The position numbers and the translations under genes are program-made. A DNA stretch of 64,000 bases. Origin: Sodalis sp. (in: enterobacteria). Its GTDB lineage: Bacteria > Pseudomonadota > Gammaproteobacteria > Enterobacterales > Enterobacteriaceae. The notes beneath the pieces were generated by a model. It did not search any database. It had not been told where the DNA came from and was given only the letters and a program-made list of their open reading frames with translations. The stretch spans positions 593,432 through 657,431 of the forward strand of contig JBQQPY010000002.1 in the NCBI GenBank assembly GCA_052258065.1, given 5' to 3'. Of the stretch, positions 26,051 through 55,607 are shown in pieces; positions within the stretch are counted from its first letter, which is position 1, and every line of letters begins with the position of its first letter.

Positions 26051-26203
26051 AATCGTAACTCAGATTTGTTGATATTTTTCTATTTTCATAAATAAGAGCG
26101 ATCTTTTATTGCTTCAATTTTCTATTAAAATAAAAATTTTAAGTATTATTCAGTAGAATAGATATGTGATCTTCGTTTTTATCAAGAAATCTGAATCACG
26201 ACC
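26051..26203. mobile_element. MITE (copy 1), ~150 bp, with ~20-bp TIRs
   Basis: ..CGTAACTCAGATTTGTTGATA...TATCAAGAAATCTGAATCACGACC. Same element as 53,974-54,127. It lies inside IS481 3'-end sequence (26,010-26,290). Confidence 0.7.
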
Positions 26204-53560: not shown

Positions 53561-53690
53561 AAGTTTTGGTCCCAGATAATAATATAGATTCTCATTGCAC
53601 CACCCTGTTCATCGCAAAATAACTACTGAAAAATATAATTTAGTGACAAAATTATTGTTATATTTTTAATAAATATAATAATTTATATTT
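53560..53690 (+). mobile_element. IS481-family-like left-end fragment
   Basis: ..CCCAGATAATAATATAGATTCTCATTGCACCACCCTGTTCATCGC.. aligns with the left ends at 49.6 kb (reverse complement) and 16.73 kb. Confidence 0.45.
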
Positions 53691-54625
53691 AATTTTAACA
53701 GGTTATAAGAGAGTTTTACTATTCAATACTGATTAAAAAATCATTGATTATATGAATAGGCATATCGGTTCAATATAATCTGAAACGCTTCACTAGAATA
53801 TAAAATCGTAACTTTGCGGTATATCCTCTATAACGCCTCTTCAATCGCTCGATTATAACGTTTGTTTGTTAGCGTAACAGGTGGCCCAATACAGTGTTCT
53901 ATATCAAGCTCTGTACATAAGCGGGTGAATTGATTTTTCCTGATAGCTCAGCGCTTTTACAAGCCCTAAAAACGGTCGTGACTCAGATTTGTTGATACTG
54001 TTCGCTTTATTAGATAAATAAGGGCGGTCTTTTTTGCTGAAATTATCTGTATAATAGAAATTATATATTATCAGTCAACAGAATAAATATGTGATCTTCT
54101 TTTTTATCAAAAAATCTGAGTCGCGATTAAAAACAATCTGTAAACTCTCTTTCATGATCTGTAAGTATTTGATAAATAGCTATAGGACATGCTCGACTCA
54201 GATCACGCAAGAAAAATCGTGCATTAGCCACGCTCTTGGCTTTGTAGTAGGCGAATAAATCTATCGAATATCTTAATCTATACTTAAAAAAGATAACGTC
54301 ATGAGGTTTTGTTTAGCATTTGTGAAAGATATCTTCCATGAACATGCAAGTCACCAGAATCATGGCTTTTAAATGCTTTGTGCTTTGGTTGTAGTGCTTT
54401 CTCTTGCATGTAACTCAAACACCTCAATCTATTCCTAGGTAAAGAGCCATCGAGGCCAGCTAGCTCGAGGTGCGGCGCGACTCAAGAATTCGCGCAAGAC
54501 TGCTAAGAAATCGTCCAGTAGAGAAAAGCATCTTCTAAAGGGAAACGCCACTACTTCTTAATTAGGCTACAGTGTCGTCTAGAAACGATGGGGATATAGC
54601 TATAATCTTCAACATTATGTCGTTT
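53690..54625 (-). mobile_element. IS481-family-like element, decayed, carrying a MITE insertion
   Basis: Minus-strand relics of the QTN..ERLKR, ..FKAMILVTCMFME.. and ..EFLS.. blocks lie in order. The element is interrupted at 53,974-54,127. Confidence 0.65.
53974..54127. mobile_element. MITE (copy 2), 154 bp, with a flanking target-site duplication
   Basis: GGTCGTGACTCAGATTTGTTGATA...TATCAAAAAATCTGAGTCGCGAT, with ~20/22 TIR identity. It is flanked by TAAAAAC (53,967-53,973) and TAAAAAC (54,128-54,134). Removing it plus one repeat restores the IS481 consensus seen at 11,78x and 42,52x. Confidence 0.8.
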
Positions 54626-54917
54626 TATATTTATTCCTAGTTTAGTTTTGGAATGACAGTTAGATTTTACACTGAGTTAAAGCATGGATAACGAAAAGTG
54701 CTGACCAGCCCGTAATTAAAAGCATACAAGTATCGACAGTAAGGCAAAGCAAAGAAAATGCAGTAATCAGTTTAAAAAAGATCATCTTTGATTTAAATTA
54801 GATTAAAGCATGCATTTACCCCGCTAGTCTCAGTATATCCACCTGACGGTGCAGTAAAGTTATGGTAGTATAGAAAAAATTTCTACCAGAACGCCAGAGG
54901 TATATCTGAACAAACCA

Positions 54918-55607
54918 GTGCAGCTTTCTTTACCCCTCTACTTACCCGATGGCGAGACCTTTACCAGCTTTTATCCTGGCGAAAATAGCGGGCTTCTGGC
55001 GGCCCTTCAAAATATGCTGTCCGGCGAACACGGCAGCTACCTCTATTTTTGGTCACACATAGGGAGCGGTCGTAGCCATTTGTTGCATGCTGCCTGCGCG
55101 GCGCTGTCAGCGCACACCCAAGCTGTAGGCTATGTGCCATTGGATAAACGCACCTGGTTTGTCCCGGAAGTGCTGGAAGGAATGGAGCAATTAGCGCTGG
55201 TGACCATCGATAATATCGAGTGTATCGTCGGCGATCCGCCCTGGGAAATGGCGATTTTTAATCTCTACAATCGCATTCAGGAAACTGGGCGCGCGCGCCT
55301 TATTATTAGCGGCAATTGCCCGCCGCGCCAATTGAATATCGGCCTGGCTGACCTGGCTTCTCGTTTAGATTGGGGGCAGATTTATCGTTTGCAGCCGCTC
55401 TCCGACGAAGAGAAAGGCGCGGCCCTGCAGCTGAAAGCGAAGCTGCGTGGATTTGAATTGCCGGAAGACGTCAGCCGCTTTTTATTGAAACGATTAGAAA
55501 GGGATATGCGCGCGCTGTCGGCGACACTGGATCAGCTAGATTATGCGTCTATTCGCGCGCAACGGAAACTGACTATACCGTTCGTTAAATCCACCTTGAA
55601 TCTTTAA
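54918..55607 (+). CDS. hda: DnaA regulatory inactivator Hda. The homologous start is probably CTG at 54906.
   Basis: [46 protein letters not shown]....[33 protein letters not shown]...[93 protein letters not shown] is colinear with E. coli Hda. Confidence 0.94.

Follow-up and report, generated by a model that had tools for sequence, protein, structure and literature searches.

The 64,000-nucleotide stretch of Sodalis sp. DNA analyzed here (the window) carries a decayed IS481-type IS relic that is interrupted by a short element with inverted ends (Table 1). The element contains none of the open reading frames of the window and gave no match to Rfam at E ≤ 1. Its inverted repeat is built of 22-nt arms, 91% complementary and spaced by 107 nt, and the exact 7-mer TAAAAAC lies on either side, at 53967–53973 (within the longer left target) and at 54128–54134. 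The initial annotation had described this arrangement, i.e., a 154-bp MITE with 22-nt TIRs, no coding capacity, and TAAAAAC on both flanks, and all of these features were borne out. An intact 229-aa open reading frame at 54918–55607 on the plus strand, which by eye we take to encode an Hda-like (DnaA-inactivating) protein, adjoins the IS relic.

Table 1. Features of the interrupted IS relic and of the two MITE copies in the window.
Feature	Position	Strand	Basis
Decayed IS481-type (rve) IS relic hosting the MITE	53668–54640	−	81% identical to the family consensus over the rejoined empty site
Left copy of duplicated target, CTAAAAAC	53966–53973	.	Motif present once here in the 139 IS481-type paralogs
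MITE copy, non-coding, 154 bp	53974–54127	+	Sequence, blastn, nhmmer (E = 4e-31)
Left terminal inverted repeat, GGTCGTGACTCAGATTTGTTGATA	53974–53997	+	First 17 nt identical to Sodalis IS1-family element ends
Right terminal inverted repeat, TATCAAAAAATCTGAGTCGCGAT	54105–54127	−	Repeat search and profile alignment
Right copy of duplicated target, TAAAAAC	54128–54134	.	With the preceding T (54127) reads TTAAAAAC, 7/8 against the left copy
Second MITE copy in the window	26051–26203	+	Flanks TATATTTC / GATATTGC (6/8)

The host relic and its empty site

The empty site was rebuilt by joining the two flanks minus the element and one 7-mer, and the product was searched by blastn against the whole genome (1.807 Mb in 4 contigs, 43.8% GC). 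This returned 261 matches at 66–74% identity, 139–155 of which cross the junction, and the joined flanks are colinear with 139 other copies of the IS481-type IS. The uninterrupted copies have no TAAAAAC repeat at that position: the target motif (C/A)(T/A)AAAA(G/A)AC occurs once in those 139 paralogs, which read ...GCAGGCCAAAAAGACGATCTGTAAATTC... at the junction where the studied copy reads ...ACAAGCCCTAAAAACAATCTGTAAACTC.... Because the motif is single in uninterrupted copies, the duplication in the studied copy is real.

The majority consensus of the paralogs, translated from the minus strand, yields an IS481-type transposase core with an rve integrase core. Pfam PF00665 (rve) matches it with E = 1.8e-7, just below the gathering score, which is unsurprising for a query that is itself a consensus of relics. 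The genome holds at least 141 IS481-type relics of at least 400 nt, which average 76% identity to their own consensus, and an open frame of at least 150 aa was found in none of its IS481-type relics. Since the transposase gene that it interrupts was already dead, the MITE copy at 53974–54127 is presumably without functional consequence. Thus, three further claims of the initial annotation hold up, namely that the MITE lies inside an IS481 relic, that deleting it together with one repeat restores the sequence of uninterrupted copies, and that a real transposition event postdates the IS481-type copy; the last agrees with the duplicated target, the clean empty site, and the identity to consensus of IS481-type relics (76%) versus MITE copies (82%).

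The length of the duplication is less sharply defined at this copy. Its right TIR tip is 1–2 nt short of, or mutated from, the family consensus ...GTCACGACC, so that the right end (...GAGTCGCGAT followed by T) is 1–2 nt out of register with the consensus end ...GAGTCACGACC. Taken by itself, this copy allows a duplication of 6, 7, or 8 bp: the 6-bp reading has AAAAAC duplicated and the terminal CC of the element mutated to TT, the 8-bp reading has 7/8 matches with a 2-nt loss, and the empty-site alignment fits all three lengths. The duplication of 7 bp (7/8 of 8) proposed earlier is therefore correct as to the presence of the repeats, while its length is better taken from the family, where it is 8 bp.

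A family of 34 copies and its target sites

A blastn search with the 154-bp unit found 34 MITE copies, all on contig C2 and 69–79% identical to the studied copy, and an nhmmer profile recovered the same 34 as full copies (146–162 bp) together with 1 fragment. The further copies with TIRs and TSDs to be expected of a mobile family thus exist. The second copy in the window also sits in IS481-type relic DNA, at a position unlike that of the studied copy. The family consensus is ~157–158 bp long, with 31% GC compared to 43.8% for the genome, and has the termini GGTCGTGACTCAGATTT...AAATCTGAGTCACGACC; its TIRs are perfect over 17 nt and near-perfect over ~24–25 nt, and its fold is a long hairpin (−31.2 kcal/mol, z = −7.3). 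A bacterial MITE was taken to be a non-coding unit of about 50–600 bp, with TIRs, with fixed-length TSDs at independent sites, and present in multiple copies, and the 154-bp element and its family display all four properties. Neither a described Sodalis MITE nor the terminal sequence in a relevant context was found in the literature; the family is undescribed in the searchable literature and conventional in kind.

The copies are old. Substitution divergence from the consensus averages 15.6% and ranges from 10 to 23% (11.8% for the studied copy), with an excess of G>A and C>T, which corresponds to 84.4% identity by substitutions only, or 82% when gaps are included. Pairwise identity among copies averages 72.9% (sd 3.6) and peaks at 84%, with no near-identical pair among the 34. 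As the pairwise mean is close to the square of 84.4%, the value expected of a star-like phylogeny, the family points to one old burst of amplification followed by independent decay.

TSDs were tested across the family using profile-defined ends, comparing, in the 34 copies, the final 8 nt before the left end with the first 8 nt past the right terminal C. Matches numbered 131/272, versus 85 ± 7.3 when left and right flanks were paired across copies (z = 6.3; reached in 0/5000 permutations). The eighth position contributes (15/34 matches) and the ninth adds nothing (6/34, chance level); therefore, the family TSD is 8 bp. Most TSDs are degraded, and clear pairs include AGAAAATC/AGAAAATC, GAATTTAG/GAATTCAG, GCTGATTG/GCTGATTA, and GAAACGCC/(G)AAAACGCC. 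The target consensus, (G/A)AAA(A/T)nTn, is weak and the same on both flanks. All 34 insertion sites are distinct, and homology between flanks, where seen, reflects the same IS families hit at different positions. Since the flanks are never in register, the copy number does not stem from amplification as a passenger inside ISs, which was ruled out.

Two TIR-like sites on the same contig, C2:1037453–1037469 (AAATCTGAGCCATGATC) and C2:1042284–1042300 (CTTTCTGAGTCACGACC), have 3 mismatches and no partner, and each may be a solo end left by a destroyed copy. Separately, the 17-mer TATCGTCAATCAGATTT occurs on all four contigs (C1:33267, C2:252, C3:14401, and C4:777), in each case less than 3 kb from a contig end, which points to a repeat common to assembly breakpoints.

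Inverted ends and the candidate transposase

A search of 60 relatives with the MITE consensus matched the right TIR at 23/24 positions in Sodalis praecaptivus HS1, and this match coincides precisely with the 3′ terminus of an element encoding InsA-like and InsB-like ORFs. This 769-bp element lies on plasmid pHS1 (NZ_CP006570.1, 13155–13923), is annotated as an IS1 family transposase, and has the ends GGTCGTGACTCAGATTTATTGAT... and ...TATCAGAAAATCTGAGTCACGACC; Pfam recognizes the InsA zinc ribbon and HTH, as well as DDE_Tnp_IS1 (E = 7e-54). Its ends agree with the MITE consensus at 17/17 positions at both tips, extending to 23/26 (left) and 25/26 (right), and the similarity fades past ~25 nt into an unrelated interior. 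Along the same lines, the IRR of E. coli K-12 IS1A (NC_000913, 19796–20563) agrees with the MITE terminus at 19/26 positions when aligned without gaps from the terminal base (binomial P ≈ 4e-7), and at 27/40. The MITE tip GGTCGTG also fits GGnnnTG, a recognized terminal signature of the IS1 family (PMC6807381), and the 8-bp TSD falls in the 8–9 bp range of that family, of which a member with 24-bp TIRs and 8-bp TSDs has been documented; MITE TSDs generally equal those of the parent IS in length (PMC6382973). Judged from sequence, the end comparison, the reverse search, and the terminal signature together argue that the MITE ends derive from the IS1 family and not from IS1595.

The pHS1 element (L044, 756–1524) is, by its ends, apparently the sole copy in the S. 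praecaptivus genome, where it resides on the megaplasmid; it has no recognizable TSD (tcaatatat / gccgtttgt) and adjoins an Rpn-family nuclease gene. An exact scan of the 17-mer through 185,579 species-representative genomes gave 21 matches, mostly by chance, among which two organisms have IS1-type ends. In Ca. Sodalis sp. SoCistrobi, the 17-mer lies at three contig ends and is followed by the start of InsA (MAKIDVTCPRCSEADG...), and in Ca. Arsenophonus nilaparvatae a truncated copy has the same IS1-type end.

The genome that holds the MITE family has no IS1 transposase or relic by Pfam model, tblastn, or blastn: the IS1 DDE domain PF03400 found no match, tblastn with the Sodalis InsA and InsB gave nothing better than E = 0.3, and blastn with the Sodalis IS1 element matched the MITE termini only. 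Similarly, no longer or coding element with these TIRs was found in this genome, in which TIR-like sites outside the MITE copies have at least 3–4 mismatches and are unpaired. Thus, the family is an orphaned fossil; the absence of a resident IS1 transposase has no bearing on the origin of its ends.

The reading that we consider likely is that 53974–54127 is a fossil copy of a ~157-bp MITE family with IS1-lineage TIRs, mobilized by IS1 in a single burst, whose donor was lost. An IS1-type InsAB′ transposase, supplied in trans, would have bound the two IS1-type ends and integrated the element into A-rich targets of the form (G/A)AAA(A/T)nTn that were cut with an 8-bp stagger, and repair of these cuts would have left the 8-bp duplications. 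Amplification would have been essentially a single burst, later than the IS481-type wave. The IS1 donor would since have been lost completely; it may have been plasmid-borne, given that S. praecaptivus has its single copy on pHS1. By now, the family is probably immobile and decaying neutrally.

Several observations sit less comfortably with this reading. The genome retains no trace of an IS1 transposase, though relics of other IS families persist in it by the hundreds, and the reading therefore requires a donor that was low in copy number or carried on a plasmid and later disappeared. The likeness to IS1 is limited to the terminal ~25 nt, with an unrelated interior, which leaves descent by internal deletion conjectural. 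E. coli IS1 typically makes 9-bp duplications, versus 8 bp for the MITE family, and the right junction of the studied copy is 1–2 nt out of family register.

The initial annotation had proposed a non-autonomous derivative mobilized in trans by an IS1595-type transposase. The family TSD agrees with the 8-bp duplications that IS1595-family elements make, although this length does not separate IS1595 from IS1. The genome also contains 26 relic matches to PF12762, compared to no IS1 relic, and two MITE copies lie 12–13 nt from IS1595-like ends. However, the ends of the resident IS1595-like relics (GTCATTCCGCACCT...) agree with the MITE terminus at no more than 11–12/26 positions, even at the best of 7 offsets, a level that looks close to chance as judged without a computed background, whereas IS1-family ends fit at 23–25/26, with 17/17 at the tip. 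As for an intact IS1595-type transposase, which the initial annotation suggested looking for, all 26 PF12762 matches are fragments of the transposase C-terminus, most with stop codons. IS1595 parentage was rejected on the end comparison, and we regard mobilization by such a transposase as improbable. The two families are described as distantly related (Siguier et al. 2009, as cited in PMC6807381).

A REP/ERIC-like structural repeat, palindromic and dispersed through recombination or as an IS passenger, would account for the hairpin fold of the consensus (−31.2 kcal/mol, z = −7.3) and for the repeat DNA found in 76% of the flanks. It does not account for sharp ends that coincide with IS1-type TIRs, a significant family-wide 8-bp TSD, insertion points that vary within the host ISs without any flanks shared in register, or the clean empty site of the studied copy; it is largely refuted by the TSD, the empty site, and the insertion sites, and we give it almost no credence. 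Nor is it at all probable, albeit marginally more conceivable, that the family is still mobile through an unrecognized or very divergent resident transposase. Nothing speaks for this directly, though a small replicon could be missing from an assembly that is 96.6% complete in 4 contigs; every copy is 10–23% substituted from the consensus, most TSDs are degraded, no pair is near-identical (maximum 84%), and no element of the genome has these TIRs around a coding region.

Distribution, chronology, and comparison with known systems

By its EF-Ts, the organism appears to be Sodalis-allied on single-gene evidence, with 87% identity to S. praecaptivus (G005), 86% to G025, and 83% to G023. The full MITE was found neither in the 60 relatives nor in ~400 genomes drawn from the same GTDB family, where other matches are short AT-rich chance matches, and a MITE terminus with 23 specified bases had no match in JGI metagenome contigs. 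The 4.5-Mb genome of the close relative G025 holds one deleted relative of the MITE, 112 bp long (L043, 1500–1611, i.e., G025:C1:2016808–2016919). This element is single-copy, has internal deletions, and is 88% identical to the consensus over aligned positions; it is flanked by ...CAAATTTC on the left and CAGAAATTTC on the right, with an AAATTTC repeat. It suggests that the family predates its amplification in the genome studied here, or that it moved between Sodalis lineages. An IS5-type transposase gene lies ~160 nt from the G025 element.

Decay from consensus averages 24% for IS481-type relics and about 16–18% for the MITE. The lower identity of the IS481-type relics, together with the nesting of the 53974–54127 and 26051–26203 copies within them, indicates that the IS481-type wave preceded the MITE burst. 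Repeat DNA makes up 76% of MITE flanks, versus 36% of random 200-nt genome windows (P = 1.4e-11), and the surviving copies lie mostly in IS DNA that was already dead. The simplest reading of this enrichment is that insertions survive in dispensable DNA; it could reflect a genuine bias of insertion toward dead IS DNA or toward the vicinity of IS ends, or equally survivorship under purifying selection.

Two MITE copies, C2:225525–225679 and C2:658913–659065 (the latter just outside the window), lie 12–13 nt outside an IS1595-like relic terminus (GTCATTCCGCAC...), and the spacer differs between the two. Their proximity to these termini may be a coincidence or reflect a target preference near IS ends.

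Under the IS1-driven reading preferred above, the parent assignment is corrected from IS1595 to IS1, and a reduced Sodalis-allied symbiont genome keeps 34 MITE copies whose autonomous partner is gone. The finding provides a relative order of mobile-element waves, with the IS481-type first and the IS1-driven MITE later, and a family profile that lets annotators mask ~5 kb of otherwise unexplained repeats; it reveals no new mechanism. A bolder and rather doubtful extension is that the family is all that remains of an IS1 lineage which spread through the symbiont after the IS481-type bloom and then vanished. If true, nested insertions and graded decay would together allow the successive transposon waves that accompanied genome reduction to be ordered from within the genome.

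Compared with known systems, the IS1595 family resembles the Sodalis MITE in its 8-bp TSDs, has relics in the same genome, and is distantly related to IS1, but differs at the ends (11–12/26). The resemblance to IS1 lies in the termini and target: the pHS1 element shares 17 identical terminal nt and ~25 near-identical ones, as well as the GGnnnTG signature, and the 8-bp TSD is within 8–9 bp. Unlike the pHS1 element and E. coli IS1A, the MITE has no insA/insB, has an unrelated interior, and spans 157 rather than 768–769 bp; it also lacks an autonomous partner in the same genome. MITEAba12, related to ISAba12 (PMC6382973), and the Cardinium MITE (PMC9769881) are likewise small, AT-rich, non-coding, and multi-copy, with TIRs in common with the parent IS and TSDs of parent-like length. 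Both have a co-resident parent and recent activity, whereas the Sodalis MITE is orphaned and old. It shares identity with the candidate parent in the TIRs only, and in this it resembles the ‘type II’ description (PMC6382973).
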